A stretch of 64,000 nucleotides of DNA, from IMG/VR virus record IMGVR_UViG_3300020197_000017, positions 4,793-68,792 of that record. One strand, 5' to 3'. The notes below the pieces were generated by a model. The model had not been told where the DNA came from and did not search any database. It saw only the letters and a program-made list of their open reading frames with translations. A program made the translations under genes and the position numbers. The stretch comes from a virus (lineage: Duplodnaviria > Caudoviricetes). Below are positions 42,844 to 64,000 of the stretch, one piece after another (positions within the stretch are counted from its first letter, which is position 1; the number at the start of each line of letters is the position of its first letter).

Positions 42844-43313
42844 TCTTCCTCCTCCTCGTCCTCGTCGCGGTGCCGAGTGCTGCGCTTCGGCTTCCGTGCC
42901 CGTTCCTCGAAGACGTGCTTGAAGGGATCCCGGTAGGGCGCGCGCGGGATCTGGTCCATCGCGAAGATACCCTCGACCATGCCTGCGCGGATCCCTGCCA
43001 GGGCCCCGTTGAACATCAACGCCTCGAAGAAACCCAGCGCCTCGTCGTTCCGCTCCACGAAGCTCTCCGGGTCCGGCGTGACTGCGATGCTGTTCCCCGG
43101 GCCCTTTCGTCCGGCGGAGCGGCGGTCATCCCTGTCGTCCCGATCGTCTCGCCGACTATCCCGCTCCCGCTTGTCCCGCAGGTTGTTCTTGACGATGACG
43201 GCGCACGTCGCCTGCCAGCGGCAGTTGCGGCAGATGCGGTCGTTCTCGTCGTGTTCTCGTTCATCTCCGAAGCAACTGGGCCTGCGGAGCGTGTTTTCTT
43301 CATAGCGAGCCAC
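42840..43313 (-). CDS. Hypothetical Cys-motif protein, first gene of the replication block
   Basis: CFG...CRNCRWQATC; RD-rich stretch; AGGAGG upstream of GTG. Confidence 0.75.
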   Translation of the reverse strand: MARYEENTLRRPSCFGDEREHDENDRICRNCRWQATCAVIVKNNLRDKRERDSRRDDRDDRDDRRSAGRKGPGNSIAVTPDPESFVERNDEALGFFEALMFNGALAGIRAGMVEGIFAMDQIPRAPYRDPFKHVFEERARKPKRSTRHRDEDEEEED

Positions 43314-43391
43314 TTAGTGCCCTCCTGGTTCGACTCTCTTATGCCGGGGTATGTTACGGTCTGCACATCGACCCCTTCCGTCGAGGTAGAG
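43314..43391. promoter_or_regulatory. Divergent promoter region between replication and head blocks
   Basis: 78-bp gap between divergent genes; - strand GGCATAAGA (43337-43345) upstream of AGGAGG. Confidence 0.65.
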
Positions 43392-44411
43392 ATGCGTGTT
43401 CTCGATGTTGCCGACGACTTCGGCGCCTTCCTCAAGGCGGCCATGCCGGTCATGCAGATGGGGCTGGTCAAGACCGCCGCCTGGCGTGAGCCCAGCGCGC
43501 TCCGACCTCGGGACGGTGCGCTCATCCTCATCGACACCGACGGCAAGGAGTACGTGAAGTACGCGTGCTTCGATCCCGGGAATACGGCGGTCTCCATGCT
43601 CTACCTCGAGCACGCGCGACCGCACCTCAACCCGGCCGCCATCAAGGTCGCGGCCACCACCCTCGCCGCGGCCGCGCAGGACTGGGGGCTCCCCGTACCC
43701 TCCGAGATCGCGAAGATGGCCAGCATTGAGCTGAGCCCGGAGGACCAGCGCCACGTCGTCGATGCACGGCGCGTGCATTACCACCCGCCGAAGGTGGCGG
43801 CCGCTCCGCGGAAGTCGGAGGGGCCGTTCGCGAAGCTCGCTGGCGCGAAGCTGCAGTGGGCCGACATGGACCCGTTCGCGCGGCGCGAGGTTGCGTTGGA
43901 GCTCACCAAGGCGGCGTCGGCCGTCCCGCTCTCGATCCCGGACCACTTCTACCGGTACGCCGGTGAGCGTCTCAGCGGGAAGTTCGCGTCCTACATGCGC
44001 GAGCGGCTCGACTATGTGAGCGACCCCGAGGTGGCCGAGGGGTACCAGACCTTGGCCAAGATCGCCGAGGCATGCACGCCCGACTCCGTCGTGCAGTCGC
44101 TGTACGCGCTCGACGAGCTCGCAGGGCTGCGCTGGGGCGGCGGAGACCGCTACGGCGAGAAGCTGGCTGACCCCGTGCGGTGCGTCTACGACTGCAACAA
44201 GATCGCCAGCTTCTCGTGGAACCACGGGGCCGAGGCCACCAACGAGAACGAGCTCTACGACATGGTTCACGACCCGCGCCGCCTGATGCGGCTCAAGGGC
44301 ACCTTCACGGACGAGCTGTGTGCCCGCATCGAGAAGGACCCGGTCGGTACGTTCAAGGCCATGCCCCACGAGCAGAAGGTGATCCTGTCGCGCATGGCTC
44401 GCGAGGTGTAG
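43392..44411 (+). CDS. Hypothetical head-associated (scaffold/core-like) protein rich in K-x-A motifs
   Basis: ATG 43392 with GAGG; contains KTAA, KVAA x2, KMAS, KLAG, KAAS, KIAE, KIAS; near the portal. Confidence 0.7.
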   Translation: MRVLDVADDFGAFLKAAMPVMQMGLVKTAAWREPSALRPRDGALILIDTDGKEYVKYACFDPGNTAVSMLYLEHARPHLNPAAIKVAATTLAAAAQDWGLPVPSEIAKMASIELSPEDQRHVVDARRVHYHPPKVAAAPRKSEGPFAKLAGAKLQWADMDPFARREVALELTKAASAVPLSIPDHFYRYAGERLSGKFASYMRERLDYVSDPEVAEGYQTLAKIAEACTPDSVVQSLYALDELAGLRWGGGDRYGEKLADPVRCVYDCNKIASFSWNHGAEATNENELYDMVHDPRRLMRLKGTFTDELCARIEKDPVGTFKAMPHEQKVILSRMAREV

Positions 44412-45202: not shown

Positions 45203-45798
45203 ACGCTGACGTCTACAGGACCTGCTTCGCAGAACTCAGCAAGGCCGCCTCGCTGGGCGGCGCCGCCCGCGCCGTAGGGAACTTCGCCCGCGATGCCGGA
45301 GAACTCACACTGCGTGGGTTCACACCTTCCGGAATCCGGGAGGGCTTCCAGGCCGGTAAGCAGCAGCTCCTGCACGGGGACGCATTCTCGCGTATCGGGG
45401 TGGGCGTAGCGGTTCCGTTCACGGCATGGGACACGGCGAACACCCTTCGCACCAAGACGGACCCTGTGAGCGGCAAGCCCATCGGAGTGTTCGAGCGCGG
45501 TGCAACCGCCCTGGGGAAGGTCACCTCTGGGGTGGCAGGCATGACCGCGTTGAACCATGGAGGTCTTTTTCGCGGGCTCGGGGTCGCGATGGCTGCGGGG
45601 CTCGGCACGGACATGATTACGCGGCACGCGGGACGGTTCCTTGATCGGAAGTTGATGCCGACGGCGCCGCAGGGCGGCGCCGCGATCGGGCGCATGAGCA
45701 GTATGTACACCGCGCGCCCGACCGGGCGCATGGGCAGTATGTACGCCGCGCACCCAGCGACTGCCGCTGGCGGTACACCCGTCGCTCGGGGGGCGTGA
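45199..45798 (+). CDS. Gly/Ala-rich, possibly membrane-active protein with leader ending ELSKAA
   Basis: ATGA-coupled; MNADVYRTCFAELSKAAS; hydrophobic Gly-rich segments; 36-bp duplicated unit at 45687-45755. Confidence 0.7.
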   Translation: MNADVYRTCFAELSKAASLGGAARAVGNFARDAGELTLRGFTPSGIREGFQAGKQQLLHGDAFSRIGVGVAVPFTAWDTANTLRTKTDPVSGKPIGVFERGATALGKVTSGVAGMTALNHGGLFRGLGVAMAAGLGTDMITRHAGRFLDRKLMPTAPQGGAAIGRMSSMYTARPTGRMGSMYAAHPATAAGGTPVARGA

Positions 45799-47933
45799 TG
45801 AGCATCGGTGTCCTCGGCGGCGACGCCAGCCGCTTCACCCCGCGCCAGGCCACGTCCTACTGGACGAGCCGCGGGTACGGCGTCCGCTACCCGTCTCCGT
45901 TCTTCGACGTCGCTCAACAGTTCCTCCCCGAGAACGTCCACCAGCTGCACACCTGGTGTCGGTACTACTTCCTCACGAACCCGGTGATCAACGTCGCCTG
46001 CCAGAAGATGGCGGAGTACCCGGTGACGCCGCTGGTCTGGGAGACAGACGACGACCAGCTCGGGAAGCTGTACCTCGACCTCGAGGAGCAGTTGAAGCTG
46101 CGGCAGTTCCAGGTCGAGATCGGCCTGGACTACTTCGTCTACGGCAACGCCTTCGCCAGCGTCTTCTTCCAGCTGGAGAAGTACCTCATCTGCAGACACT
46201 GCCAGGAGCGGGTGCGTGCCTCGAAGAACCGGAGCCGCTACAAGTGGCGCGGGGGCCGGTTCTACCTGCACTGCCCGAAGTGCGCTGTCGAGGATTACGC
46301 CGACCAGGCCGACAACTACCCGCGCAACGCGCGAGGGGCCCGCCTCGTCCGCTGGAACCCCGAGAACATCGAGATCAAGTACAACGAGATCACCGGCAAC
46401 AGCCGGTACTACTTCCGCCTGCCGAGGAGCGTCGTCAACGATGTCCGGCTCGGCGACCCCGAGACGATCGAGACCCTCCCCTACCAGTTCCTCGAGGCGG
46501 CGCGCACGAACCGCGCGCTCCTGTTCCACCCCGACAACTTCTTCCACCTGAAGCGCCCCACCATCGCCCAGAAGGACCAGGGCTGGGGGATGCCGCTGAT
46601 CTTCCCGCTCCTCAAGGACGCCTTCTACATGCAGGTCATGAAGAAGGCCCAGGAGAGTCTGCTTCTCGAACACGTCGTTCCCCTGCGCATCATCTTCCCC
46701 GGGCCCACCACCGGCGGCAACGATGGACCCTTCGGCGCGTACAACCTCGTCAACTGGAAGCAGAAGGTCGAGGTCGAGATGGCGATGTGGAAGCGGGACC
46801 ATAACTACATCCCGATCCTCCCGATGAACATCGGGTACCAGCAGATCGGCGGGCAGGCGAAGGCGCTCATCCTGCACCAGGAGTTCCGCATTCACGCCGA
46901 GGCGATGCTGGCGGGCGCAGGCATCCCCGTAGAGTTCGTCTACGGCGGCTTGCAGTGGTCGAGCTCCAATACCTCGCTGCGCGCTCTCGAAAACACCTTC
47001 CTGGGCTACAACAAGGAGCGGTACAACCTCACGCGCTTTGTCATCGACAAAGTCGCCTCCCACATGGGGTGGCCGCGCATCCCCTTCCGCTTCGAGAAGT
47101 TCCGCATGGCGGACGACCTGCAGCGGGCGATGTTCTACTTCCAGCTCAACCAGGCGAGCAAGGTCTCCGACCAGCGTCTGCTCGAGGAGATCGGCGAGGA
47201 CTTCGACACCGAGCAGGCGCGGCTCACCGCCGAGATGCGGAAGCAGGTCACGACCCAGCGCGCCACGCAGCTCGCGTCTGCCGACATCCAGGGCGCCGCA
47301 ATGCTCCGTACGTCGCGGTACCAGGCCAAGGCGACCGAGATCACGATGAAGGCGCAGGCCTCCACGCAGATGGACATCCAGCAGGAGCAGGCGGCCATGG
47401 GGATGGTCCCCGGTGCCGCGCCTGCGGGCGATCCGGCGGCAGCGGCAGCCAGCGGTGCTCCCGCAGCTGGCGATCCAGCAGCAGGTGCGCAGCAGCCCGA
47501 GGCAGCCCCCGGAGCAGCGCCAGGTGCACCCGCGGGTGCACCTGGGCAGGACGCCGTGCAGCAGACCCCGGGGGTGCCCGAGGGGGCAACGCTCTACGAC
47601 GAGAACGCGGCGACCCCCAACGCATCCCGAGGGCCTACCCCGATGGCGGGTCTCGAGTCCACGCTGCAGATGGGACAGGGCGGCTTCGACATGCGCTACG
47701 TCGCCCAGCGTGTCGCTGCCTACATGAACACGCTGAAGCAGCAGCCCGGCGGCGAGCAGCTGATGTACCAGGAGCTCAATAAGCTGCAGATGGAGAGCCC
47801 GCAGCTCTACCAGATGGTCATCCAGCTGCTGAACAGCAGCGGCTCGGCGCGGAACCCGTTAGACCCGCTCAAGTCCCCCATCACGCCACGGTCCGGTGCG
47901 CAGGTCGACGCAAGCCGGGCAGTGGGAGGTTAA
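45795..47933 (+). CDS. Phage portal protein with Zn-finger-like insertion and Q/A/P-rich C-terminus
   Basis: NPVINVACQKMAEYP, DYFVYGNAF, FFHLKRP...GWGMPLI..LL, MLAGAGIPVEFVYGG. Confidence 0.82.
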   Translation: MMSIGVLGGDASRFTPRQATSYWTSRGYGVRYPSPFFDVAQQFLPENVHQLHTWCRYYFLTNPVINVACQKMAEYPVTPLVWETDDDQLGKLYLDLEEQLKLRQFQVEIGLDYFVYGNAFASVFFQLEKYLICRHCQERVRASKNRSRYKWRGGRFYLHCPKCAVEDYADQADNYPRNARGARLVRWNPENIEIKYNEITGNSRYYFRLPRSVVNDVRLGDPETIETLPYQFLEAARTNRALLFHPDNFFHLKRPTIAQKDQGWGMPLIFPLLKDAFYMQVMKKAQESLLLEHVVPLRIIFPGPTTGGNDGPFGAYNLVNWKQKVEVEMAMWKRDHNYIPILPMNIGYQQIGGQAKALILHQEFRIHAEAMLAGAGIPVEFVYGGLQWSSSNTSLRALENTFLGYNKERYNLTRFVIDKVASHMGWPRIPFRFEKFRMADDLQRAMFYFQLNQASKVSDQRLLEEIGEDFDTEQARLTAEMRKQVTTQRATQLASADIQGAAMLRTSRYQAKATEITMKAQASTQMDIQQEQAAMGMVPGAAPAGDPAAAAASGAPAAGDPAAGAQQPEAAPGAAPGAPAGAPGQDAVQQTPGVPEGATLYDENAATPNASRGPTPMAGLESTLQMGQGGFDMRYVAQRVAAYMNTLKQQPGGEQLMYQELNKLQMESPQLYQMVIQLLNSSGSARNPLDPLKSPITPRSGAQVDASRAVGG

Positions 47934-48773
47934 ATGTTCAAGACTGCCTCTGCTGTCTACGATACTTACGCTCTTGCCTACGAGAAGCTGGCTTATGGAA
48001 ACGAGGAGCACGCGCAGCTCGCAGACATCGCGGCGAAGTCAGTGGGTAGCGGCGCTCCGTCGCCAGCGGTCGCGTCTACGATCCAGCGCGGCGCCCTGAA
48101 GGTGGATAGCGGCATTCGTCATCCGTGGCTGCCACATACGGATCCCTTGCACTCCTTTCCCGGGTCGCAGACGCGATCGATGGTCGGCAAGAATGTCGCG
48201 CAGAAACAGGACTTGGCAGTGCACGATATCGCCAAGTCCATCGCCACCAAGGGAAGTCCCCTTTCCGGTGCGCGCGCACACCGCGGTTTGATGAACCTTG
48301 GAGAGGGGCACCACCAGCTGATGGACATCGGGGCACACATGGAACGTCCCGAGCGGGAGGGCCAGGTGACACGCCTGCGCGGTGTCATGAAGGGGAAGGA
48401 GCACGGATACGGGGGCGGACTTATTTCCGGGCGGGAGCACCATCTCTCCGGGATGAAGCTGAAAAGGGACGGACTGCACGCGGATCTCGATCGGCTGCGC
48501 CCCGAGTCCTCCGCGGTCGATCGCGCGGCCCTTGCGCGTTCGGAGCGCTTCGGTTCTTCGACTGCTAAGAAAGTGCAGGCCCGCCTGGTTTCGCACCACG
48601 GCATGTCACCACAGGCAGCGGCGGCGAACGCCGAGCATTTCTTCCAGCACATGCAGGCCCCGAGCCTCCCCAGCCGAATCGCTGGGGAGGCATCAAGGAC
48701 ATCCCGCTATCTTAGGGGAGAGGCCTCCCGCGCAGGTGGCGCGCTGCGCGCCGCGCTGCGCAGCCTCTACTGA
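47934..48773 (+). CDS. Putative Zn-dependent phospholipase C / S1-P1 nuclease-fold protein with cleavable leader
   Basis: After KLA: YGNEEH (compare WGxxGH); D...H; LGEGHHQLMDIGAH (compare LGxxxHxxxDxxxPxH). Confidence 0.5.
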   Translation: MFKTASAVYDTYALAYEKLAYGNEEHAQLADIAAKSVGSGAPSPAVASTIQRGALKVDSGIRHPWLPHTDPLHSFPGSQTRSMVGKNVAQKQDLAVHDIAKSIATKGSPLSGARAHRGLMNLGEGHHQLMDIGAHMERPEREGQVTRLRGVMKGKEHGYGGGLISGREHHLSGMKLKRDGLHADLDRLRPESSAVDRAALARSERFGSSTAKKVQARLVSHHGMSPQAAAANAEHFFQHMQAPSLPSRIAGEASRTSRYLRGEASRAGGALRAALRSLY

Positions 48774-49530: not shown

Positions 49531-49720
49531 CTACGACATCCTCCTGGGCCATCGGCCCCGATACCATCTGGTGTACCAAACTCGCGAACTCTGACAGGGT
49601 GGACCGGTGCGCCCCCGCCGTCTTGTCATGCAGCGCGCGCTTCCGGGGCGTGGTAGAACTTTGAGTCACAGGCTACCTCCGTCATGGCTCTTATGGCCAG
49701 TAGTGGAGCGCTCTTCACAG

Positions 49721-52700
49721 ATGCCGAACCTTAACCCAGAAGCCGCTTTCGAGAGTCTCAAGGAGCGCGCCGCCGAGGCGATCCGCGCGCAGTTCCCGTT
49801 CGAGGGGGCGCGGCGGCGGCTGGAGCTGGCTGAGATCGTCTTCGACGACCGCGCGGCCATCTCCTCCGACATCCATCACGTCGACAACCTTGAGGAGCAG
49901 TTCCGCGCGCGGACGACCGGTATGACCTGGGGCGTGCCGGTCCGGGCACGACTGCGTCTCGTTGACAAGACGAGCGGTGCCCTCGTGGAGGAGAAGCTCG
50001 TCACGCTCGCACGCCTCCCGAAGATGACGCGCCGGTACTCCTACATCATCGAGGGGCAGGAGCGACAGCACGACAGCGTCTTCCGCTCGAAGCCCCGCCC
50101 CTACCACCGCATTGCGGGCAACGGCGACCTCCAGGGGCGCTGGAACCTGGCGCGCGGCCGCGGGTTCGACATCGGCTACGAACCCAAGGCCGGCAAGATG
50201 ACATTCTCGGTGGGGACCTCGAACCTGCCGCTCTACTCCGTGCTTCGCACACTCGGTGTCACGGATGCGGAGATCGAGCACGCCTGGGGGAACGCCGTCT
50301 ACGCCGCCAACACGAAGGCGGTCCACCTCGACAAGGACGTGGACAAGCTCTTCGCAGCGCTCGGGCTGCGCCTCGAGGACCGGTCGCACGGGACGCCGCA
50401 GGCGCGTGCCCAGCGCGTCCGCGAGTACTTCGACAGGGAGACCGAGGTCTGGCCAGACGCGATGAAGTCGGCGTTCGGCAGGGAGTCCTCCAACGTCAAC
50501 GGCGAGAACCTCCTCGCATCCTCGCGCCGGCTCCTGGACATCCAGAAGGGACGCACGAAGGAAGACCCGCCGCCGTCCGAGCTCCCCGATGATCGACAGG
50601 CGCTGTCGGCCAAGTACCTGACCACGACCGAGGACTTCGTCGTGGAGGCCATCCGCCATCACGAGACGCTGCTGCGGCGCCAGGTGCGCGACCGGATCGA
50701 CAAGCCCGAGTACGGCATCGACCAGATCATGTCGCCGAACACCTACAACAAGGTCGTCCTGGCACCGTTCGCCCACGCGCAGCGGCCCGACCAGACCAAC
50801 CCGCTCCAGTTCCTCTCGGGGCACATGCGGACGACGATCCGCGGCAAGGACTTTGGCGGCGTCGGCAGTGACAAGATCAACCTCGACCCCGACAAGGAAC
50901 TGAACCCCACGCACCTTGGGTTCATCGATCCGATCCAGACCCCAGAGGGAGAGGACACCGGGATCGCGCTGAACCTGCCCCTGGGGATCCACATGTCGCG
51001 TGCCGACGTGCGCGAGGGCTCGAAGAGCAAGACGTCTTCCGGCCAGGACCTACGCACAAAGGTCTTCGACACGAAGACGGGGAAGATGATCTTGGCCTCG
51101 CCGGCGGACCTCGAGCACGCCATCGTGGCCTACCCGGACCAGGTGCGCTGGGTGCGGGGCATGCCCGAGCCGGTGTCGAACGAGGTCGTCTGCTACGACG
51201 AGGAGCGTCGCACGTCGAAGCGTCCCTGGGCGAAGGTCCGGTACGTGCTCCCGTCGTCGAAGGCCCTGCTCTCCTTCAGTGCGAACCTCATCCCGTTCCT
51301 CCAGAACGACAACGGCAACCGCGCCATGATGGCTGCCAAGCAGCAGGAGCAGGCGCTCGCACTGGTGCACCGGGAAGCTCCGCTCGTGCAGGTGAAGACG
51401 GACGGCGCCCAGACCTTCGAGCAGGTTGTGGGCTCCTTCGTCTCGCACACGTCGCCCGTGGCCGGCGTGGTCAGGAAGGTGGAGCCGGGCGCCATCCATG
51501 TCCAGACGCCCACGGGCTCCGTGGCGGTCCCGGTCTACAACCACTTCCCGCTGAACGGGGGGAAGAACTCGCTCCACGCTGCACCGCTCGTGAAGGCGGG
51601 CGACACCGTACAGAAGGGCACGCTGCTCGCGGACACGAACTACACGAAGGGCGGCGCGCTCGCGATGGGGGCCAATCTGCGGGTGGCCTACATCCCGTGG
51701 AAGGGTCTGACCTTCGAGGACGGGATCGTCGTGTCCGAGTCCGCCGCGCAGAAGATGGCGTCGGACCACCTGCACGTCTCGGAGATCACGGTCTACGCGA
51801 GCATGCTCGGCGGCACCGGCGGGTCGAAGGCGCGCTGGGCGGACTACGCGACCCCTGCCGCGGCTTCGCCGGAGCACCTGGCCAAGCTCGACGACCGCGG
51901 GATCGTGAAGGAGGGGACGCCTGTACACACCGGCGACATCCTCGTGGCCGTCCTCAGCCCGAAGCAGATGAGCGAGGACGACAAGATCGCTGCGCGCATC
52001 CACAAGTCCCTCGCGAAGCCCTACAAGGACGTGTCGCTCCTGTGGGACCACCCGTACTCCGGGACCGTAGTCAAGATCATCGTCAACGAGACTCTGAACC
52101 GGCGCCAGATCGCGGTCCACGTGAAGACGTCCAAGCCGCTCGAGATCGGTGACAAGATGGCGGGGCGGCACGGCAACAAGGGCATCATCAGCCGCATCGT
52201 CCCCGACTCCCAGATGCCCCACACGAAGGACGGGCAGCACGTCGAGGTCCTCCTGAACCCCGCGGGCGTGCCCAGCCGTATGAACGTGGGGCAGGTGCTC
52301 GAGACGGCCGCGTCGAAGATCGCGGACAAGACCGGCAAGCCCTACGTCGTGGAGAACTTCGTGCCCGGCGTCGACTACGCCGCGCAGGTCAAGCGGGATC
52401 TGGCACGGTACGGGCTCTCCGATACGGAAGAGCTCATCGACCCGGAGACCGGACGCTCGGTCGGGCAGGTGATGGTCGGCAAGCAGTACATGATGCAGCT
52501 GCATCACCAGGTCGAGAAGAAGATGACCGGTCGGTCCTTCGCGACCGGCTACACGCACTCCGGGGAGGCCCCGAAGGGCTCCGGCGTCCCTGGCGGCGGG
52601 CAGAAGATGGACATGCTCACGACGTACGCGATGCTCGCGCACGGTGCGAACCAGAACCTCCGGGAGGCCTACACCTTCAAGAGCGACGGGGACCAGCACG

Positions 52701-55700
52701 CCGCCTGGGCCGCCGTGATCTCCGGGAGTCCGCTCCCGCCGCCGCAGCCCTCGCGTGGGATGACCAACTTCCAGCACTACCTACGCGCCATGGGGGTGAA
52801 CACCGAGAAGCGTGGCGACGAGTACGTCATGATGCCGATGACGGACGCGCACCTGCTGGGCGACACGAAGCGCGGCATCCACGGCATCTCGAACGGAGAG
52901 ATCCGGCTCCCGGAGAAGCAGACCGTCGCTCGCGGGGCGCGGACCGTCGAAGAGTCGGGCGGCCTGTTCGACCCGCGCGTCACGGGCGGCCTCCAGGGCA
53001 AGTTCTGGAGCCACGTGACGCTCGCCGAGCGCATGCCGAACCCCATCTTCGAGGGGGCCATCCAGAACCTGACGGGCCTGACGAAGAAGGAATACGACAT
53101 GCTCACCAGCGAGAAGGGGCTGGTCGGCGGGAAGTCAGGGTTCCACATCATCAACGCGCGGCTGTCCGCCATCGACGTGGACAAGGAACTGAAGGCGGAG
53201 CAGGCGAAGCTGGCCACGGCGAGCAGGACCGATCTGAACCGCGGGCTCAAGAAGATCCGGTACCTCGAGGCCCTCAAGGCGCACGACATGTCGCCCCTCG
53301 AGGCCTACACGAACCAGCACCTGCCCGTGCTGCCGCCCGCGGTGCGTCGCGTGTCCATCGGGCTCGACGGCAAGCAAGTGACCGACGACCGGAATCCCTT
53401 GTACCTGAACGTCGGGTACAACAACGGCATCCTCAAGAACCTCGACAAGTCGTCGACGCACGCCGGGGCCCAGAAGGCACGCGCTGAGCTCTACAACAGC
53501 ATCAGGGCGCTCCGTGTCGAGGGCATGACCTCTCCCGCAGGCACCGGCAAGCCGCGGCACATGCAGGGGCTCATGGAGCTCCTCTCCGGGAAGACGGAGG
53601 ATCGCGGGGCTCCGAAGGAGAGCTTCTTCCAGGAGGGTGTGCTTGCGCGGCGCCAGGATCTCTCCGGACGCTCGACGATCGTCCCTGAGCCGACGCTTGG
53701 GCTCGACGAGGTCGGAGTCCCGCGCCCGATCCTTATGGAGATGTACAAGCCCTTCGTGATCCGCGAGCTCGTGCGGGGCGGGAAGACGCACATCGACGCG
53801 CTCAAGTGGGCCACCGAGAAGCGGGACCACCCTCAGGTCCTCGCGGCACTCGAGCGCGCCGTCGCGGACCACCCGGTGTTCCTCAAGCGCGACCCCGGCC
53901 TGCACAAGTTCAGCATCATGGCGTTCAACCCGAAGATCGTGGACGGCAGCGCCATCAAGATCCACCCACTGGTGACCAAGGGCTTCAACGCGGACTTCGA
54001 CGGCGACACGATGGCCCTCTACGTGCCCGTCTCTCCGCAGGCGGTCGACGAGGCCCGGAAGGTCCTCCCTTCCAAGAACCTGTTCTCGCCCACTACCTAT
54101 GGACTCATGACGGTGCCCGATCAGGACTCCCTGCTTGGGCTCTTCCAGTCTACCAAGTGGGGCGAAGAGGCGAAGACCCCCGCCGGTCTCACGGCCGAGC
54201 GGGCCGTCCAGATGATGCACGACGGGAAGCTGAAGCCGTCGGACGTGATCACGGTCGATGGGAAGAAGACGACTCCCGGTCGACTGGCCTTGGCCGCGCA
54301 CCTTCCCGGCGAGATGGCGAAGCATGAGCAGCTCCTGCACGACCCCGCGTTCCGCCTCGACTCGGGGCGGCTGAAGGCGCTACTCACGCGCGTTGGCAAG
54401 GAGCACGAGCAGGCCTTCCCGCACGTCGTCGATGCGTGGAAGGACCTGGGCAACACCATGTCGTTCAAGAACGGGAGCTCCTTCTCGATCGACGACTTCC
54501 ACGACGGCGCGGCGTTCCGCGACCAGGTCCTGAAGAAGTACCGGGAGCAGGAGAAGAAGCTGCACGCCACGCCGATGTCGAGCCGGAAGCGTGACCAGGA
54601 GATCGTCAAGCTCTACCAGGACGCACAGGCCGAGCTGAAGCAGCTCGGGGTGGTCCGCTACAACCAGGGTGACAACCGCGTGTGGGAGTGGGCGCAGGCC
54701 GGTGCGCGCGGCAACTGGGGGCAGTTCTCGCAGCTGACCGTCGCCCCCATCCTCGTCGACGACCTGATGAAGCGTCCCGTGCCGGTCCCCATCACCAAGT
54801 CCTTCGGTGAGGGACTGTCTGTCTCCGAGTACTGGGCGTCGATGCACGGTGCTCGCAAGGGCACCATCGACCGCGCGCAGGGCACCAAGGAGCCTGGTGC
54901 CGTGACGAAGGACATCGTGAACACCACGATGGGCATCCAGATCACGGGCGAAGATTGCGGGGCCACGGCCGGCAAGACGGTCAGCGTGGGCGCAGTGGAC
55001 CTGGTCGACCGCTTCCTCGCCACCGACGTCAAGCTCCCGGACGGCCATGCCATCCCCGCGGGCACTCTCGTGACGCCGGCGCTGGTCTCTCAGCTGCGGA
55101 ACGCTGGTGTGCAGGAGGTAGTGGCGCGCTCCCCGCTGTTCTGCCGGATGCCGCGCGGCATCTGTGCGAAGTGCTATGGGCACTCGGAGCGCGGGGCCCT
55201 GCACGCCGTCGGGACGAACATCGGGGTCATCGCAGGCCAGGCGCTCGGTGAGCCGATCACCCAGCTCACGATGAAGACCTTCCACACGGGAGGCGTCTCG
55301 GGGGCAAAGACCGCTGTCGACTCCTTCAAGCGCGTGAAGCAGCTGTTCATGCTGCCGGACAAGCTCCCGGACCGCGCCACCCTGGCCACGGTCGGAGGCG
55401 TGGTCGAGAAGATCTCCACGGACGCCCTCGGCGGATTCACCGTGGTCATTGAAGGCAAGCCCCACCGCGTGGTGACCGGGCACCTGCTCGAGCATGTGAA
55501 GGTCGGCGCTCGCGTCCATCGCGGCGATGCGCTCTCCACGGGCCCCACGGATCCACACGAGCTGCTGCACCACACGAAGAGCATCGGGCGCGTCCGGAAC
55601 TACATCACGGACGAGGTGGCCACAGCCTACCAGGGGATGGTGCGGCAGCGGAACATCGAGACCGTCGTGCGGGGGATGACGAACCTCGCCGAGATCCACG

Positions 55701-56038
55701 ATGCCCCGCACGCCAGCCCGTTCCGTCGCGGCGAGGTCGTGCCGCTGTCTGCCGTCGAGGCGCACAACGCGGAGGCCGAAGCCGAAGGGCACGAGACGGT
55801 CTCGCACGCACCGGTGCTCCGCGCCATGACCCAGGTCCCGCTCAGCGGCACCGAGGACTGGATGGCGCGCCTCAACTACCAGCGCCTGAAGGACACCTAC
55901 ACCGAGGGTGCCGCCCAGGGCTGGAAGTCCAACATCCACGAGCACCCGATCCCGGGGCTCGCGCACGGAGCGGAGTTCGGAACACGCCCGCCGCGTGCTA
56001 TCTCTGCACCCTCACCCGCCGCTGGAGTACGTCGATGA
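49721..56038 (+). CDS. rpoBC: Phage-encoded single-chain fused beta-beta' DNA-directed RNA polymerase (~2105 aa)
   Basis: beta motifs QTPEG, LIPFLQND..NRAMM, GDKMAGRHGNKG, LNPAGVPSRMNVGQ, GGQK; beta' motifs GLFDP, SGRSTI, R.P.LH, FNADFDGD, HGARKG, CAKCYG, GEPITQLTMKTFHTGG, all in one frame. Confidence 0.95.
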   Translation: MPNLNPEAAFESLKERAAEAIRAQFPFEGARRRLELAEIVFDDRAAISSDIHHVDNLEEQFRARTTGMTWGVPVRARLRLVDKTSGALVEEKLVTLARLPKMTRRYSYIIEGQERQHDSVFRSKPRPYHRIAGNGDLQGRWNLARGRGFDIGYEPKAGKMTFSVGTSNLPLYSVLRTLGVTDAEIEHAWGNAVYAANTKAVHLDKDVDKLFAALGLRLEDRSHGTPQARAQRVREYFDRETEVWPDAMKSAFGRESSNVNGENLLASSRRLLDIQKGRTKEDPPPSELPDDRQALSAKYLTTTEDFVVEAIRHHETLLRRQVRDRIDKPEYGIDQIMSPNTYNKVVLAPFAHAQRPDQTNPLQFLSGHMRTTIRGKDFGGVGSDKINLDPDKELNPTHLGFIDPIQTPEGEDTGIALNLPLGIHMSRADVREGSKSKTSSGQDLRTKVFDTKTGKMILASPADLEHAIVAYPDQVRWVRGMPEPVSNEVVCYDEERRTSKRPWAKVRYVLPSSKALLSFSANLIPFLQNDNGNRAMMAAKQQEQALALVHREAPLVQVKTDGAQTFEQVVGSFVSHTSPVAGVVRKVEPGAIHVQTPTGSVAVPVYNHFPLNGGKNSLHAAPLVKAGDTVQKGTLLADTNYTKGGALAMGANLRVAYIPWKGLTFEDGIVVSESAAQKMASDHLHVSEITVYASMLGGTGGSKARWADYATPAAASPEHLAKLDDRGIVKEGTPVHTGDILVAVLSPKQMSEDDKIAARIHKSLAKPYKDVSLLWDHPYSGTVVKIIVNETLNRRQIAVHVKTSKPLEIGDKMAGRHGNKGIISRIVPDSQMPHTKDGQHVEVLLNPAGVPSRMNVGQVLETAASKIADKTGKPYVVENFVPGVDYAAQVKRDLARYGLSDTEELIDPETGRSVGQVMVGKQYMMQLHHQVEKKMTGRSFATGYTHSGEAPKGSGVPGGGQKMDMLTTYAMLAHGANQNLREAYTFKSDGDQHAAWAAVISGSPLPPPQPSRGMTNFQHYLRAMGVNTEKRGDEYVMMPMTDAHLLGDTKRGIHGISNGEIRLPEKQTVARGARTVEESGGLFDPRVTGGLQGKFWSHVTLAERMPNPIFEGAIQNLTGLTKKEYDMLTSEKGLVGGKSGFHIINARLSAIDVDKELKAEQAKLATASRTDLNRGLKKIRYLEALKAHDMSPLEAYTNQHLPVLPPAVRRVSIGLDGKQVTDDRNPLYLNVGYNNGILKNLDKSSTHAGAQKARAELYNSIRALRVEGMTSPAGTGKPRHMQGLMELLSGKTEDRGAPKESFFQEGVLARRQDLSGRSTIVPEPTLGLDEVGVPRPILMEMYKPFVIRELVRGGKTHIDALKWATEKRDHPQVLAALERAVADHPVFLKRDPGLHKFSIMAFNPKIVDGSAIKIHPLVTKGFNADFDGDTMALYVPVSPQAVDEARKVLPSKNLFSPTTYGLMTVPDQDSLLGLFQSTKWGEEAKTPAGLTAERAVQMMHDGKLKPSDVITVDGKKTTPGRLALAAHLPGEMAKHEQLLHDPAFRLDSGRLKALLTRVGKEHEQAFPHVVDAWKDLGNTMSFKNGSSFSIDDFHDGAAFRDQVLKKYREQEKKLHATPMSSRKRDQEIVKLYQDAQAELKQLGVVRYNQGDNRVWEWAQAGARGNWGQFSQLTVAPILVDDLMKRPVPVPITKSFGEGLSVSEYWASMHGARKGTIDRAQGTKEPGAVTKDIVNTTMGIQITGEDCGATAGKTVSVGAVDLVDRFLATDVKLPDGHAIPAGTLVTPALVSQLRNAGVQEVVARSPLFCRMPRGICAKCYGHSERGALHAVGTNIGVIAGQALGEPITQLTMKTFHTGGVSGAKTAVDSFKRVKQLFMLPDKLPDRATLATVGGVVEKISTDALGGFTVVIEGKPHRVVTGHLLEHVKVGARVHRGDALSTGPTDPHELLHHTKSIGRVRNYITDEVATAYQGMVRQRNIETVVRGMTNLAEIHDAPHASPFRRGEVVPLSAVEAHNAEAEAEGHETVSHAPVLRAMTQVPLSGTEDWMARLNYQRLKDTYTEGAAQGWKSNIHEHPIPGLAHGAEFGTRPPRAISAPSPAAGVRR

Positions 56039-56394
56039 ACAAGGTCGCCCACGTCTACGAGATCTACAAGGAAGCGGGTTTCGACAAGGAGGCCATCAGC
56101 TTCGCGCCCGTCGGCGAGGCCGTCACCAGCGGTGCAAAGTGGGTGGGACACCAGGTTGGGCGCCTCGGCGGTGCGATGCAGCGCACGGCGTACCAGGCGA
56201 GCCAGGGGGTTCCTACGCGGGGCACGACGTGGCTCCACGAAGCGGGCCAGGGCGTGCGCAACCTCGGCAGGGGCATCGCGGCGAACCCCGGCACGGCCGC
56301 GGGCGTCGCGGGGCTCGCTGGCGCCGGCATGATCGGTGCCGGAGGCGCGGGCGTCCTCGCCGGCCGCATGACCGCACCGCGGCGCCAGCAGTAG
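56035..56394 (+). CDS. Small Gly/Ala-rich protein with shared leader and C-terminal hydrophobic anchor
   Basis: MNKVAHVYEIYKEAGFDKEA; AAGVAGLAGAGMIGAGGAGVLAGR...RR; ATGA-coupled to RNAP. Confidence 0.75.
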   Translation: MNKVAHVYEIYKEAGFDKEAISFAPVGEAVTSGAKWVGHQVGRLGGAMQRTAYQASQGVPTRGTTWLHEAGQGVRNLGRGIAANPGTAAGVAGLAGAGMIGAGGAGVLAGRMTAPRRQQ

Positions 56395-58377: not shown

Positions 58378-59721
58378 GTGCCTCTCCAGTTTGTCACCGA
58401 CCAGTACACCGACAGCAGCGTCACCACCAGCAAACTCGCCGACGCCTCCATCACGGGCGCCAAGCTCGCCGCCGACGCGAAGGCCAGCGCACTCCAGTCG
58501 AAGCTGGTGGGCCGCTGGGTCCAGGTCGCGGAGCAGGCGAGCCCTTCCGCAAGCACGATGAACGTCAAGACCCTGCTGGGCTTCGACAGCGCCGCGGGCG
58601 TGGACCCCGAGGGTGTCGCCAAGGGCAAGGATGCTCTCCTGGAAGCGGCGAACGGCAACGAGTTCAACACCACGACCGGCAAGGTCGGTGCGAACGCTCG
58701 CGCCCGCAGCAGCAAGGTGCCCATCATGGACGCGAGCGGCGATGCCATCGTGGACAGCGTCGGTCGCGAGGTCTGGGGCGTGATCTCCTGTTCCGCCCGC
58801 ACCACGGCGGGCAGCTACACCCTCCGCTTCTTCAGCGGCGAGTTCGGCAGCGGGACCGAGATCGCCTACACGATGGCATCGCCGTTCGTCTTCGCCTACG
58901 CGCAGATTTTCGACCTGAACGACATGCCGGTCTGGGATGACGCGACCGTCGCCATGGTTGACAAGTCGGCCGCGCAGCTCGCCGCCGGGCAGATCGTCAC
59001 CAGCCTCCTGGCCGCCGACGCCGTCACCAGCGCCAAGCTCTCGTCCTCCGCTGCCGATGACTCCGCCCGCGCCGTGTCCACGAACCACGTCAAGGACTCC
59101 GCGATCTCGTCCACGAAGATCGCGAACGGCGCGGTCGTGGCCGGGAAGTACGCGGCGGGTAGCATCGCCAACGCCGACATGGCCGACTCTGCCGTGAGCG
59201 GCGCGAAGATCGCCAACGGCGGCGTCAGCGCCGGGAAGTACGCTGCGGGCAGCATTGCCACGGCTGACATCGCGGATGACGCGGTGGACGCGGGCAAGCT
59301 GAAGGACAGCGTGGCTACCGATGCCGACCGCGCCGTGACCACGAACCACATTCGCAACCTCGCGATCACGAACGATAAGATCGCCTCGAGCACCATCGGC
59401 GCGGGTAAGTTCGCGGCTGGTGCCATCACGACCGGCGACCTCGCCAACGACGCCGTGACCCTCGCCAAGATCGGTGCCCGCGCGAAGGCCGAGTCGCTGG
59501 ACGGCGGCAACGCCACGAAGCACGCGCTGGTGAACGTGGTCCCCGCCGCACACTACCCGGGTATCCATGCCTTCCGCAACGGGCAGCGTGCCAGGTTCGT
59601 CACGGGCGTCCCGGCCAGCATCGACGAGTACCGCGTGATCGAGGAGGGCGGCGCCACGAAGATCGAGTGGGGCGCGTCTATCCCCGCCGGGCAGACCGTC
59701 CAGATCGACTACATGGTATAG
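58378..59721 (+). CDS. Fibre protein with 10-residue D-x-A-V-T-x-A-K-L-A type repeats
   Basis: Repeats DSSVTTSKLA, DASITGAKLA, DAVTSAKL, DAVTLAKI; C-terminal FRNGQR domain. Confidence 0.75.
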   Translation: MPLQFVTDQYTDSSVTTSKLADASITGAKLAADAKASALQSKLVGRWVQVAEQASPSASTMNVKTLLGFDSAAGVDPEGVAKGKDALLEAANGNEFNTTTGKVGANARARSSKVPIMDASGDAIVDSVGREVWGVISCSARTTAGSYTLRFFSGEFGSGTEIAYTMASPFVFAYAQIFDLNDMPVWDDATVAMVDKSAAQLAAGQIVTSLLAADAVTSAKLSSSAADDSARAVSTNHVKDSAISSTKIANGAVVAGKYAAGSIANADMADSAVSGAKIANGGVSAGKYAAGSIATADIADDAVDAGKLKDSVATDADRAVTTNHIRNLAITNDKIASSTIGAGKFAAGAITTGDLANDAVTLAKIGARAKAESLDGGNATKHALVNVVPAAHYPGIHAFRNGQRARFVTGVPASIDEYRVIEEGGATKIEWGASIPAGQTVQIDYMV

Positions 59722-60884: not shown

Positions 60885-63800
60885 ATGCATGAACCCCTTC
60901 TGATCCAGCTCAAGACCTCCGACGACCTCTTCGCCACGAAGGTCGCGTCGGCGATCTCGCGTATGCCGGACGACGAGAAGAAGTGGCCCGCGCACATCTT
61001 CTCCGAGCTGCAGAAGGAGAACCCCTTCCTCACGCGGTACGACATCGAGATCGTCCTCGACCGGATGGACCCCGAGGCCGGCGGCGCGCTGGGCTACGCG
61101 CAGGTCCAGAACCGCACGATGTCGCGCCCCCAGGACAACCTCCCGAACGCGGGCAACGTCCTCCGCATCCCCATCGTCGTGGAGAACCGCCGCCTTCAGA
61201 AGTTCTACATCTTCGAGGCGGGCGGCCAGGTCTACCCGCTGACCGAGGAGCGCATCCAGCAGGCCATGCTGAACCCGGCGATCTTCGACACCGACGCCAC
61301 CAGCATGCCGAGCTCGCCCGGGCTGCTGGACTCGCTCTACCCGCCCTACCAGCAGCGCAACGGCTTCGGCCGCGTCACCGAGCCGGCGATGGGCCTCAAC
61401 AAGATCAGCGCGGCGCCCATCCCGCTGGCTGGTGCCGCCACCAAGGTCGGGGGGCCGGCACTTGTAGGTACGCCGAGACTCGTAGGCTCCATGACGCGCG
61501 AGGAGCTGCTGGCCGAGAAGGAGCGTGTCGAGCAGCAGCTCGCGAGCCGCACGGCGACGCTTCCGGGGGCTGCGGGAGGCGCCTTGGGGATGGGCATCGC
61601 CTCTCACTTCGGTCCGCGTCTTGGCGCGGCAGACCTTCCGATCGCTCTCGGCTCGATGGCACTGGGTGCGGCCGCGGGACACTATGGGTTCAGGTCAGGC
61701 TTGAAGTCTCGACTGGGGCGGATCGAGGAGCGTCTTCGAGAAGCTGGGCCGGAGAAGGCCGCCGAGCACACCCCGACCCCCGTGCCGGACGCCGTCGCAT
61801 CCTCACTGGCCCCCGTACTCTCGACGCTCTTCGCGCTCCACCAGCTCTACTACTTCGCCCACTGGACCAGCCAGGGCGAGGCGTCGTACTCAGACCACCA
61901 GCTCTTCACGCGCCTGTACGAGGGTGTGCGGGAGGAGTTCGACAGCGTGGCGGAGCGCATCGTCGGGCACGGTGGCAACCAGAGCCTGGACCCCGGCACG
62001 ATCTTCGCCGAGGCCTCCGCCCGCTCCCAGCAGTGGATGCAGGGCGCGGGCAGCATCTTCGAGGCGGCGCTCATCGCTGAGGGAGAGCTCCAGGCAACCC
62101 TGTTCGAGGCCTACAGCTCCCTCGACCAGGGCGGCGGGCTCTCCCTTGGGATCGACGACCTGCTGATGGGCATCGCGAGCACGCACGAGACGAACCAGTA
62201 CCTACTCAAGCAGCGCGATCCGTCCGCGGCGGCCCCGCCTGCCGCCACGCAGGAACAACCAGTTCCCCAGATCGCCGATGCGATGCAGCCCGCACCGACC
62301 GCTCCGGACCCACAGACGGTCCCGGCAGCGCAGCCCATGCCGATGTCACCGGCGATGCCCGCTGGCGAGAAGGGCGCCGCGGTCTTCGGAGCCAGCCACC
62401 CCGGACGTGACTACCTCGCCTCTGCCGCAGTCAGCCAAGGTGATCGGGAGAAGGCGGTCATCGACTACGGCAGGAAGAAGGCGAAGGAAAAGCAGACTGA
62501 TCTCGGTACCGCGCTGACGACCGGCGGGGGTGTCGGCGGTGGACTCGGCCTCCTCACGGGAGCTCTCGCAGGAATGCACGGCGGGCGCGGGCACGGGCTC
62601 CGCGGGGCCGCGCTGGGGGCTGTGGTGGGCGGTCTCGGCGGCGCGCTCATCGGCGGGGGCATGAAGGCATCCGATGACGCGGCCATCGCAAAGTGGAAGC
62701 GAGTCAACACCGCAGGACCGGCGGCGGAGAGGGACGAGGCACACCAGGCGATCCGGCATGCGATCGAGGGCGTCGCTGGCGAGGAGCGGCGCCACCGGCA
62801 TGCTCTCCAGGCCGCGGTCATCTCCAACGCGCTTCGTCCTGCACGGACGGAGCACCACTACCACTACGGCGACCGCTCGTCGTCGTCGTCGTCGTCCCCG
62901 GCCGCCCCGCAGAAGTACAAGTGCGCGTACTGCGGTACGGGTACTGTCGGGAACACCGGTCACTGCTCGAGCTGTGGGGCGCCCATGTCCGAAGCATCCA
63001 AGATGGCGAGCATCCGTGCCTTCTTCGTGAAGGAGGCGCTCACCGGAGCAGAGCTGCAGGCACGGGAAGCGGCCCGTCGTGCGGCCCAGGCGCCTGCGGT
63101 TGCCGTAGAGAACTCGCAGAGGCTGGCCCCGGCGCAGCTGGCGCGTGCGCAGCAGGCACAAGCAGCGCAGGAGGCGCAGGCGGCGGCACAGCACAACGCT
63201 GCGCAGGAGGCTCGGCGTGCACAGGTCTCTCGAGCTGTGAACGAGTGGGGGGAGCATGTAAAGAAGAACCCTTCTCCGGCGCACATCAACACGGGTCAGG
63301 ACATCGCGGCTGCCTATGACGGACATTGGACCGCGGAGCCCACGGCACCTCGACCGGCTGCACCGACGCCAGCCGCTGCGACCCCGCAGATCTCTCACGC
63401 ACCAGCGGTGCAGCAGGCCGCGGATGCGGGTGCCGCGCAAGTCCGGAGGGGCAAGACGGTCATTTCCGCGAGGGAGCTAACAGGTAGCGCGAAGGAGCTA
63501 CGTGCACACGCCGCCGCCGCTGCTGCCGCAGGCGATGCTGACAAGGCGCAGCGTCTGAACCGCGTGGCCGATCGATACCAGAAGCTCCAGGACCGTGTCC
63601 ACAGTCGGCAGCCGGCTGCGACCCCGCAGATCTCCGACGTTGCACCTGCAGCACCGTCTGCGCCTGCAGCAGCACCTCCGAAGCCGGTACCACCGCCTGC
63701 AGCACCCGTGCACACGCCTGCGCCCGTTCACACGCCTGTGCCGGCAGCGGCGGCGTCGCACGCGGCCCCGGTTGTTGCGGAGGCCGCGCACGCGGCGGCG

Positions 63801-63959
63801 CCTGCTGCAGGTGGGTTCGCCAGGCACCTGACCAGGCGCAATGCCGTGCTCGGGGCTGGGGTCGCGGCTGCTGGGGCTGCCGGGGCTCTTGGCATCCGTC
63901 ACTTCCTCAAGAAGCGCAACCCCGAGCCCGCGCCGCAGCCGACCCTGGGAGGTCGCTGA
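60885..63959 (+). CDS. Modular 1024-aa protein (putative polyprotein): N-terminal domain, Gly-zipper segments, Dps/ferritin-like domain, Zn ribbon, Pro/Ala linker, C-terminal anchor
   Basis: HWTSQG..SYSDHQLF..LY......DSVAERIVGHGG is the Dps signature (~61806-62216); CAYC...CSSC; modules bounded by K-x-A/S motifs. Confidence 0.8.
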   Translation: MHEPLLIQLKTSDDLFATKVASAISRMPDDEKKWPAHIFSELQKENPFLTRYDIEIVLDRMDPEAGGALGYAQVQNRTMSRPQDNLPNAGNVLRIPIVVENRRLQKFYIFEAGGQVYPLTEERIQQAMLNPAIFDTDATSMPSSPGLLDSLYPPYQQRNGFGRVTEPAMGLNKISAAPIPLAGAATKVGGPALVGTPRLVGSMTREELLAEKERVEQQLASRTATLPGAAGGALGMGIASHFGPRLGAADLPIALGSMALGAAAGHYGFRSGLKSRLGRIEERLREAGPEKAAEHTPTPVPDAVASSLAPVLSTLFALHQLYYFAHWTSQGEASYSDHQLFTRLYEGVREEFDSVAERIVGHGGNQSLDPGTIFAEASARSQQWMQGAGSIFEAALIAEGELQATLFEAYSSLDQGGGLSLGIDDLLMGIASTHETNQYLLKQRDPSAAAPPAATQEQPVPQIADAMQPAPTAPDPQTVPAAQPMPMSPAMPAGEKGAAVFGASHPGRDYLASAAVSQGDREKAVIDYGRKKAKEKQTDLGTALTTGGGVGGGLGLLTGALAGMHGGRGHGLRGAALGAVVGGLGGALIGGGMKASDDAAIAKWKRVNTAGPAAERDEAHQAIRHAIEGVAGEERRHRHALQAAVISNALRPARTEHHYHYGDRSSSSSSSPAAPQKYKCAYCGTGTVGNTGHCSSCGAPMSEASKMASIRAFFVKEALTGAELQAREAARRAAQAPAVAVENSQRLAPAQLARAQQAQAAQEAQAAAQHNAAQEARRAQVSRAVNEWGEHVKKNPSPAHINTGQDIAAAYDGHWTAEPTAPRPAAPTPAAATPQISHAPAVQQAADAGAAQVRRGKTVISARELTGSAKELRAHAAAAAAAGDADKAQRLNRVADRYQKLQDRVHSRQPAATPQISDVAPAAPSAPAAAPPKPVPPPAAPVHTPAPVHTPVPAAAASHAAPVVAEAAHAAAPAAGGFARHLTRRNAVLGAGVAAAGAAGALGIRHFLKKRNPEPAPQPTLGGR

Positions 63960-64000
63960 TGTCCGAGCTCACCACGGACCAGCGCAACAACCTCGGTGAG
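63959..64000 (+). CDS. Start of the next gene, truncated by the window edge
   Basis: GGAGG then ATG overlapping the stop: MSELTTDQRNNLGE. Confidence 0.6.
   Translation, partial: MSELTTDQRNNLGE

Follow-up and report, generated by a model that had tools for sequence, protein, structure and literature searches.

Conserved Lys-x-Ala junctions in a mosaic protein of an uncultured phage point to a candidate head-loaded cargo polyprotein with a Dps-like cassette

The prohead protease of phage T4, which also has the Alt protein, cuts after Leu/Ile-x-Glu; the maturation sites of herpesvirus assemblin, in viruses whose capsid has the HK97 fold, take the form hydrophobic-x-Ala with the cut before Ser; and encapsulins load ferritin-like cargo by means of a C-terminal peptide, without proteolysis. 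Here we describe an open reading frame (ORF) at 60885..63959 on the plus strand of a 64,000-nucleotide stretch of viral DNA (Duplodnaviria; Caudoviricetes), positions 4,793 to 68,792 of IMG/VR record IMGVR_UViG_3300020197_000017, in which dissimilar units are strung between Lys-x-Ala (K-x-A) motifs. This stretch, called the window below, makes up the final 64 kb of a viral contig of 68,792 bases with a CheckV completeness of 36%, and the contig ends 41 nucleotides (nt) past the ORF stop. With moderate confidence, we favor the reading that the ORF, of 1024 amino acids (aa), encodes a head-loaded cargo polyprotein on a split carrier, cut by the prohead protease.

Polyvalent proteins place many domains in one phage late-gene polypeptide and are predicted to be packaged with the DNA and cut, and their authors draw an analogy with the polyproteins of RNA viruses (PMC5512222). 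One domain type of that study, InPase, is predicted to be packaged into virions (PMC5512222). In T4, a short capsid targeting sequence loads the diverse internal proteins IPI-III into the core of the prohead and is removed by the prohead protease (PMC3012670). In phage SPN3US, gp245 cuts after A-x-E, with Ser preferred next, at sites that mark capsid, portal and ejection proteins; 13 of the 14 mapped sites remove N-terminal propeptides, and the word "polyprotein" is absent from the text of that paper, which also mentions phiKZ and 201phi2-1 (PMC10052503). Neither "ferritin" nor "Dps" occurs in the text of PMC5512222, the domain tables of which may still list ferritin-like domains, and literature searches at the level of main article texts found no paper on the system described here.

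The mosaic character of the protein emerges from comparison with its relatives. A word-indexed search returned 15 close homologues of 574-1171 aa, and these share only the first ~175 residues with the query, that is 15-18% of its length, at 51-77% identity. Beyond this N-domain the order of modules is permuted: in pairwise BLAST alignments, query residues 220-505 correspond to residues 379-656 of homologue P0001, and query residues 701-1017 to P0001 residues 173-448. The Ala/Pro region with its hydrophobic end helix, which is last in the query, lies directly behind the N-domain in P0001-P0005, where the Dps module comes last, and the query tail is homologous to the post-N-domain region of P0001, P0004 and P0008. 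Homologue P0011 carries an InPase domain (PF18823, Pfam E value 3.5e-37), P0013 carries a SUKH-like stretch, and other relatives carry several unnamed modules. The same variety is found at the level of loci, since five distinct ones hold five different cassette sets between the N-domain and a second conserved part, the body, which is treated below. The window locus has four in-frame cassettes; G001 has the Ala/Pro tail and Dps; L002 has an N-domain ORF with other modules and a Gly-rich/4-Cys module, then a second ORF of 976 aa, then the body; L004 has the SUKH-like stretch and other modules; and in L005/6 the N-domain ORF stops 40 aa past the domain and a separate 296-aa ORF carries InPase. 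A preliminary description of this ORF had foreseen orthologues with a conserved N-domain and variable cassettes swapped at K-x-A, and this is what the alignments yield: the N-domain is kept, the cassettes differ and are reordered, those that are shared begin at K-x-A, and the orthologues are not collinear, cassette variation being present throughout the set. Taken on its own, the mosaic cassette structure appears from these comparisons to be nearly certain.

Moreover, where the reading frame is broken in relatives, the breaks coincide with cassette junctions. The InPase unit occurs in three settings, internal in P0011, at the start of an ORF in L002 and as a stand-alone head-block gene in G001, and the L002 InPase ORF opens with the same Met-Gly-Leu-Leu...K-V-A leader. 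Fusion and fission at junctions are to be expected if the units are separated afterwards, because the joints would then be functionally neutral. The InPase sequences of P0011, of the second L002 ORF (where the domain was recognized from its sequence) and of a G001 gene match PHROGs named minor head protein or virion structural protein. That second L002 ORF (9883..12813, plus strand, 976 aa) is itself polyprotein-like and strings together InPase, an Ala/Pro stretch bearing a hydrophobic helix, a segment rich in Gly, a Dps-like module, an unnamed domain and a hydrophobic end helix. Elsewhere in G001, a block at 159726..165778 (L016 7726..13775) adjoins tail-sheath-sized genes and comprises a helicase (PHROG 62, E 3.9e-57, with a weak DarB-like PHROG match), a 368-aa kinase-like protein and a 757-aa InPase protein, the last two carrying, like the studied ORF, the same hydrophobic Gly/Ala helix that finishes in a basic end.

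All six junction sites named in the preliminary description are present in the protein: TKVAS at residues 18-22, LNKISA at 171-176, PEKAAE at 289-294, GEKGAA at 494-499, SKMAS at 705-709 and FVKEAL at 714-719. Across homologues, K-x-A stands at the N-terminal edge of the Dps module in 7/7 copies, the Gly-rich module (7/7) and InPase (3/3) likewise have it at that edge, and it follows the Cys motif in 4/4, the sequence upstream being unrelated each time. Sites away from the edges are not conserved (K531 in 0/13, K679 in 0/4, the K-A-S at 594 in 0/11). Hence it is the placement of the sites at module edges, as judged by conservation in homologues, and not their frequency, that is the nonrandom feature. 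Units open with (F/L)-(E/V)-K-x-A and then, in most cases, Ser or Ala, and the family at large shows the same preference for Phe/Leu and Glu/Val before the Lys, with Ser after the Ala enriched 4.3x. In the complete relative G001 (182,777 bases, 99% complete), 3 of 171 predicted proteins pass a Bonferroni threshold for K-x-A; the motif takes up 10 of the 11 Lys residues of a 304-aa head-block protein, 12 of 21 in the body and 9 of 14 in a 396-aa protein. The homologue of this last protein in the window (42870..44411, plus strand) is the densest there, 12 of its 19 Lys belonging to the motif against 2.5 expected (p 6e-7); neither Pfam nor PHROGs gave a match for this protein, which may be a scaffold or core protein. 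The K-x-A tag probably marks cut sites of the head protease. Three otherwise different late proteins, listed in Table 1, share a candidate head-loading tag, a leader of ~20 residues with M-(F/N)-K-(T/V)-A at its start and K-x-A at its end; the studied ORF's own leader ends K-V-A at residue 21.

By its matches, the cassette at residues 293-440 is Dps-like but divergent. The Pfam Ferritin family (PF00210) aligns with residues 312-410 at E 3.1e-5, the 24.4 bits lying just under the 24.5-bit cut-off, and PHROG 3636 matches the cassette at E 2.1e-8. A phmmer search against PDB chains gave 41 distinct sequences at E <= 1, every one of them either a member of the Dps family or an engineered Dps chimera, with 2chp (3.9e-5) and 4cya (3.1e-4, over cassette residues 20-146) at the top. 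The divergence is evident from the NCBIfam Dps equivalogs, the scores of which fall far under the cut-offs (24.1 versus 300 bits and 20.7 versus 114 bits). The Dps domain proposed in the preliminary description is thus retained as to its nearest relatives of solved structure, which are of the Dps family, and has to be qualified as a divergent form that scores below curated family cut-offs. In the 2chp alignment the His of H-W, a His 12 residues on, and the Asp and Glu of D-x2-A-E are identical; we take these two His, the Asp and the Glu to be ferroxidase-centre ligands of Dps. At one further acidic position, four residues past the second His, the query has Thr. A search for stand-alone relatives of the cassette, restricted to proteins of 85-272 aa that share words with the query, found none at E <= 1e-5, and in a named-phage collection the only match was an uncultured 485-kb phage (39.7% identity over residues 298-444).

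The case for excision by a head protease rests on the K-x-A that ends the capsid leader and on the K-x-A sites that crowd scaffold-like proteins in the relative. The head block of G001 lies at 138.8-152 kb. A modest structural model of its 388-aa capsid protein, with a predicted local distance difference test (pLDDT) score of 61, drew 62 Foldseek matches at E <= 1e-3, all to HK97-fold capsids or encapsulins, and on this model the assignment as an HK97-fold capsid protein is confirmed. Its leader of ~29 residues ends K-T-A, with K28 at least 90% conserved and A30 invariant among 22 sequences; one of 30 distinct capsid N-termini has K-L-N in place of K-T-A. Upstream of the capsid gene, and in 35 of 36 capsid loci, is a gene for a protease-like protein (637 aa in G001) that matches PHROG 18299, head maturation protease, at E 4.3e-5, with invariant His137, His138 and Ser194 and a conserved K37-x-A39. 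The protein has no Pfam match, PDB searches with the single sequence and with a 21-sequence profile reached a best E of 0.12, which is not credible, and PF03420 was found by Pfam in none of five related records. It is at this point that a different cutting agent must be considered: a host peptidase, another phage peptidase or an embedded one could act outside the head, with the units serving unpackaged in the infected cell, for example at the membrane. The weakness of the prohead protease call speaks for such an agent, as do the recurrence of hydrophobic end helices on late proteins of the lineage, an H-E-x-x-H string seen by eye in homologue P0010, and the proposal that polyvalent proteins are processed by embedded metallopeptidases (PMC5512222). 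Against it, Pfam, PHROG and NCBIfam find no peptidase domain in the ORF or in P0010, and a motif common to the capsid leader, the protease-like protein and the scaffold-like proteins is a head maturation signature. Cutting outside the head seems to us quite improbable.

The same relatives clarify what the cassettes are inserted into. When the N-domain was scanned exhaustively and without a profile, 402 representative proteins of 156-1209 aa matched at E <= 1e-3, with the match always N-terminal; K22 and K177 (numbering of alignment A1) are at least 90% conserved in this family. Most members are of ~660-750 aa and have the body as a second conserved part. In G001 a gene for a body of 506 aa comes next after the homologue of our ORF (127246..128979), the two genes overlapping by ATGA. 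This body can be aligned with the last ~500 residues in 87 of the 154 representatives of the family; these 87 have N-domain and body in one chain, with -9 to 496 aa between the end of the N-domain and the projected body start. At all four related loci (G001, L002, L004 and L005/6), the N-domain ORF has a homologue of the body 0-3.1 kb further downstream. By these alignments the N-domain is the front part of a widespread protein of ~670 aa, and the cassettes sit in its linker. This amends the earlier picture of cassettes accreting in one ORF: the units are mosaic as proposed, and they occupy an inter-domain linker and are not appended to a free-standing head piece. The body was found neither in the studied ORF nor in the window by tblastn, the contig ending right after the ORF, and the body that belongs to this ORF is apparently encoded by a gene of its own further downstream, truncated where the contig ends. 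The first 14 residues of the gene that starts at 63959 resemble the start of the body-containing ORF of L002 (12740..14551), so that this gene probably encodes a small cassette first and then the body of the split protein. An AlphaFold2 model of an unsplit relative, P0031, built from a 57-sequence alignment (pLDDT 86), has an alpha/beta N-domain followed by a disordered linker at residues 161-178 (pLDDT < 50), exactly at the insertion point. Foldseek comparison of this model with the PDB gave 0 matches at E <= 1e-3; BFVD gave one uncharacterized phage protein of the carrier family (E 1.4e-51) and, besides it, two weak rows; with VIA-align the best Z among 48,161 chains was 5.9 and no chain reached 8, in a run that barely covered the N-domain; the ESM Atlas gave no usable carrier match; and Pfam and PHROGs had nothing for the carrier N-domain, the body or the conserved neighbors. 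The weak BFVD rows were to trypsin-like proteases; in the beta-rich part of the family alignment no Ser, His or Asp is invariant.

The favored reading of a cargo polyprotein can be put as a sequence of steps. The carrier would consist of the N-domain, a disordered linker and a K-x-A-dense body, and in a high-GC clade the linker would have become a hot spot for insertion, swapping and reordering of cassettes. The reading frame stops after the cassettes, and the body would follow as a translationally coupled gene. The chain would enter the prohead with the carrier or the scaffold, and inside the head the prohead protease would cut after K-x-A. The products would be the N-domain, the hydrophobic segment and three further units, one Dps-like, one Gly-rich/4-Cys and one Ala/Pro with the hydrophobic end helix. 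Once free, the units may leave the head with the DNA, and the Dps-like unit might bind or protect DNA or handle iron. A bolder version, which we hold only tentatively and consider doubtful in its full extent, is a plug-and-play cargo locus: the linker of a scaffold-like carrier would be a landing pad for units preceded by K-x-A, in frame or as ORFs of their own, that are loaded into the head and freed by a Lys-x-Ala / Ser protease, among them a Dps mini-ferritin that would assemble inside a DNA-filled capsid and so form a phage counterpart to the loading of ferritin into encapsulins.

Several considerations weigh against loading and cutting in the head. Within the ORF, K-x-A accounts for 7 of 34 Lys, which is the chance level (shuffle mean about 6.6, P(>=7) = 0.50), and K-x-[AS] for 10 versus 8.6 expected. 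The excess across 157 family proteins (1635 of 5834 Lys versus 680 expected, with an R-x-A control at 0.97x) includes homologous sites many times. The motif could be partly structural, because several carrier sites lie inside confidently modeled helices, and its conservation in the capsid leader is unspecific, the leader around K-T-A being conserved as a whole block. The capsid and protease-like genes are known from relatives, outside the window and its contig, and the identification of the protease is weak. The carrier itself matches no known fold or named family, its head location being assumed from motif density and late-gene context, and 67 representatives have an N-domain without a body, some of which may be ORFs ended by contig ends. 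Finally, the phage is uncultured, and we infer its packaging, cleavage and ejection steps and the function of each unit.

Much of this would be accommodated by an uncut mosaic, a multi-domain membrane-associated or virion protein the modules of which recombine at their junctions, with K-x-A-(S) as a linker or helix-start motif or as a targeting tag that is never cleaved. Chance frequency in the ORF and carrier sites in well-modeled helices or at helix starts would then be natural, as would the three or four moderately hydrophobic Gly/Ala segments, which are of the kind seen in membrane proteins, and short conserved junctions alone would favor recombination. The preliminary description had argued that an embedded Dps copy probably needs release; this argument is weak, since the PDB matches include engineered Dps fusion chimeras of 257 aa, so that an embedded Dps need not be freed. 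An uncut protein leaves unexplained, however, why ORFs break exactly at the junctions and why one unit occurs internally, at the start of an ORF and alone with the same leader; nor does it account for the same motif at the end of the capsid leader or for head-block proteins in which nearly all Lys are in K-x-A (10/11). We regard the uncut mosaic as unlikely.

The hydrophobic segment behind the N-domain (residues 176-292) has no Pfam match; its Kyte-Doolittle maximum is 1.43, at residues 245-270, and its residues 220-290 can be aligned with a hydrophobic tail of P0001 that stands before the Dps module there. The Pro/Ala/Gln-rich linker after the Dps module has variable counterparts in homologues. 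The Gly-rich/4-Cys module is common to the query, P0006-P0010 and P0014, with G-x3-G-x3-G strings at 547, 559 and 574 and Kyte-Doolittle maxima of 1.1-1.6. The Gly-zippers of the preliminary description are borne out as to such strings and 19-residue Kyte-Doolittle maxima of 1.4-1.6, and they amount to composition only, there being no Pfam Gly-zipper match even at E <= 1; its zinc ribbon corresponds to a C-x2-C-x11-C-x2-C motif that is kept in 4/4 sequences with the Gly-rich module. The junction peptide, residues 706-718, has K-x-A at either end, and the Ala/Pro tail reaches its Kyte-Doolittle maximum of 1.55 at residues 985-1008. Inside the Ala/Pro region is a 44-nt direct repeat (63352-63394 and 63591-63634, 84% identity) that encodes a repeated Ala-Thr-Pro-Gln-Ile-Ser stretch; a blastn search of the ORF against the window at E <= 1e-3 returned this internal repeat only, with no match near 19360.

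Codon usage bears on both the origin of the cassettes and the reality of the ORF. A shift in codon style near some borders had been noticed, and it is recovered as a G+C content at third codon positions (GC3) of 0.97 and 0.93 in the N-domain and Dps segments versus 0.69-0.80 in the Gly/Ala/Pro-rich segments, three large window genes giving reference values of 0.89-0.91. The shift persists within Ala codons, of which 13/13 are GC-ending in the N-domain, 57/94 in the tail and 82-84% in the reference genes. Lower GC3 tracks low-complexity as opposed to folded parts; the shift follows that divide and the GC3 of the Dps cassette is genome-typical, and for these reasons codon style alone is no proof of separate origins. 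It could also be asked whether the whole is an artifact, either a long frame left open by chance in GC-rich DNA or a product of chimeric assembly, given that it overlaps with long ORFs in other frames, a common situation at 68% GC, and that GC3 goes down to 0.53-0.75 in the last 300 codons. Homologues exist for every segment, however, GC3 exceeds GC2 (the second-position value) throughout, and the same architecture recurs on independent contigs; an artifact is most improbable. With protein-level homologues along its length, the 1024-aa ORF is, on comparative grounds, a genuine coding gene and not a chance frame.

Table 1. Segments of the 1024-aa ORF and other features of the locus; coordinates are those of the window unless a contig is named.
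Feature	Coordinates	Strand	Residues	GC3	Remarks
Leader and conserved N-domain	60885..61409	+	1-175	0.97	Leader end K19-V-A; domain end K173-I-S-A
Helical stretch and Gly/Ala-rich, moderately hydrophobic segment	61410..61760	+	176-292	0.74	End E-K291-A-A
Dps/ferritin-like cassette	61761..62204	+	293-440	0.93	
Pro/Ala/Gln-rich linker	62205..62375	+	441-497	0.77	End E-K496-G-A
Gly-rich hydrophobic pair, His-rich stretch and 4-Cys zinc-ribbon-like motif	62376..63008	+	498-708	0.80	End K706-M-A-S
Junction peptide, Ala/Gln/Pro-rich region and C-terminal Gly/Ala hydrophobic helix with basic end	63009..63956	+	709-1024	0.69	Junction peptide runs to K716-E-A
Start of next gene	63959..64000	+			ATG overlaps the TGA stop of the ORF; cut off by contig end
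Tail-fibre-like protein	58378..59721	same as ORF			
2143-aa protein matching PHROGs named RNA polymerase beta subunit	49607..56038	+			Matches along its length
Baseplate-wedge-like protein, 2210 aa	3974..10606	same as ORF			
Shared-leader protein	L007 4777..5433 (= window 1..641)				
Shared-leader protein	47934..48773				
Shared-leader protein	56035..56394				

Of the neighboring genes in Table 1, the one for the 2143-aa protein looks, by its matches, like a fused multisubunit-type RNA polymerase; it also matches two large unnamed PHROGs (E 4.7e-119 and 9e-83), and its G001 homologue has 2103 aa. Most other window genes have no Pfam or PHROG family match, and this includes 45795..47933, which had earlier been labeled portal.

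Should the cuts prove real, a signal of three residues would turn any domain, whether fused in frame or separately encoded, into a packaged unit, and this lineage would exemplify a general and simple way for phages to load and exchange head cargo. The signal would then be a readable code for the packaged or ejected proteome of many uncultured phages, the carrier family comprising 402 representative clusters, and the protease specificity that it implies would differ from the cut-after-Glu rules known so far. A Dps-like domain for iron handling or DNA protection would be placed inside a viral capsid, and, like the T4 targeting sequence, the system would provide a natural design by which foreign proteins could be brought into capsids.

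Set beside the known systems, the ORF most resembles the polyvalent proteins (Iyer et al. 2017, PMC5512222), in that unrelated domains (N-domain, Dps-like, 4-Cys) share one chain with tail-fibre-like neighbors and homologues add InPase and SUKH-like domains. The polyvalent hallmark InPase is present in homologues and not, by Pfam, in the studied ORF. Whereas the polyvalent proteins are proposed to be cut by embedded metallopeptidases (PMC5512222), the studied ORF has no such domain in the three family collections searched, and its units are delimited by the K-x-A that it shares with the capsid leader. The likeness to T4 lies in a short N-terminal leader on diverse proteins, three late proteins of this contig sharing one that ends K-x-A; in T4, however, every cargo protein has a small gene of its own, with a single leader and an x-x-Glu site, whereas here the units are chained, with K-x-A at each joint. 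As in SPN3US, the code has three residues with Ser preferred just after the cut; unlike in SPN3US, it would be K-x-A and would release several folded units from one chain. Ala before and Ser after the presumed cut resemble the sites of herpesvirus assemblin; the Pfam and PDB sequence searches with the protease-like protein gave no sign of an assemblin fold. As with encapsulins, an HK97-fold shell would enclose a ferritin-superfamily protein bearing a short targeting signal, but here the Dps-like unit is part of a polyprotein and would be loaded, as we infer, into a DNA-filled capsid. What would be new relative to all of these is an array of cassettes delimited by a signal and cut in trans, housed in the linker of an unnamed carrier and including a Dps-like unit.

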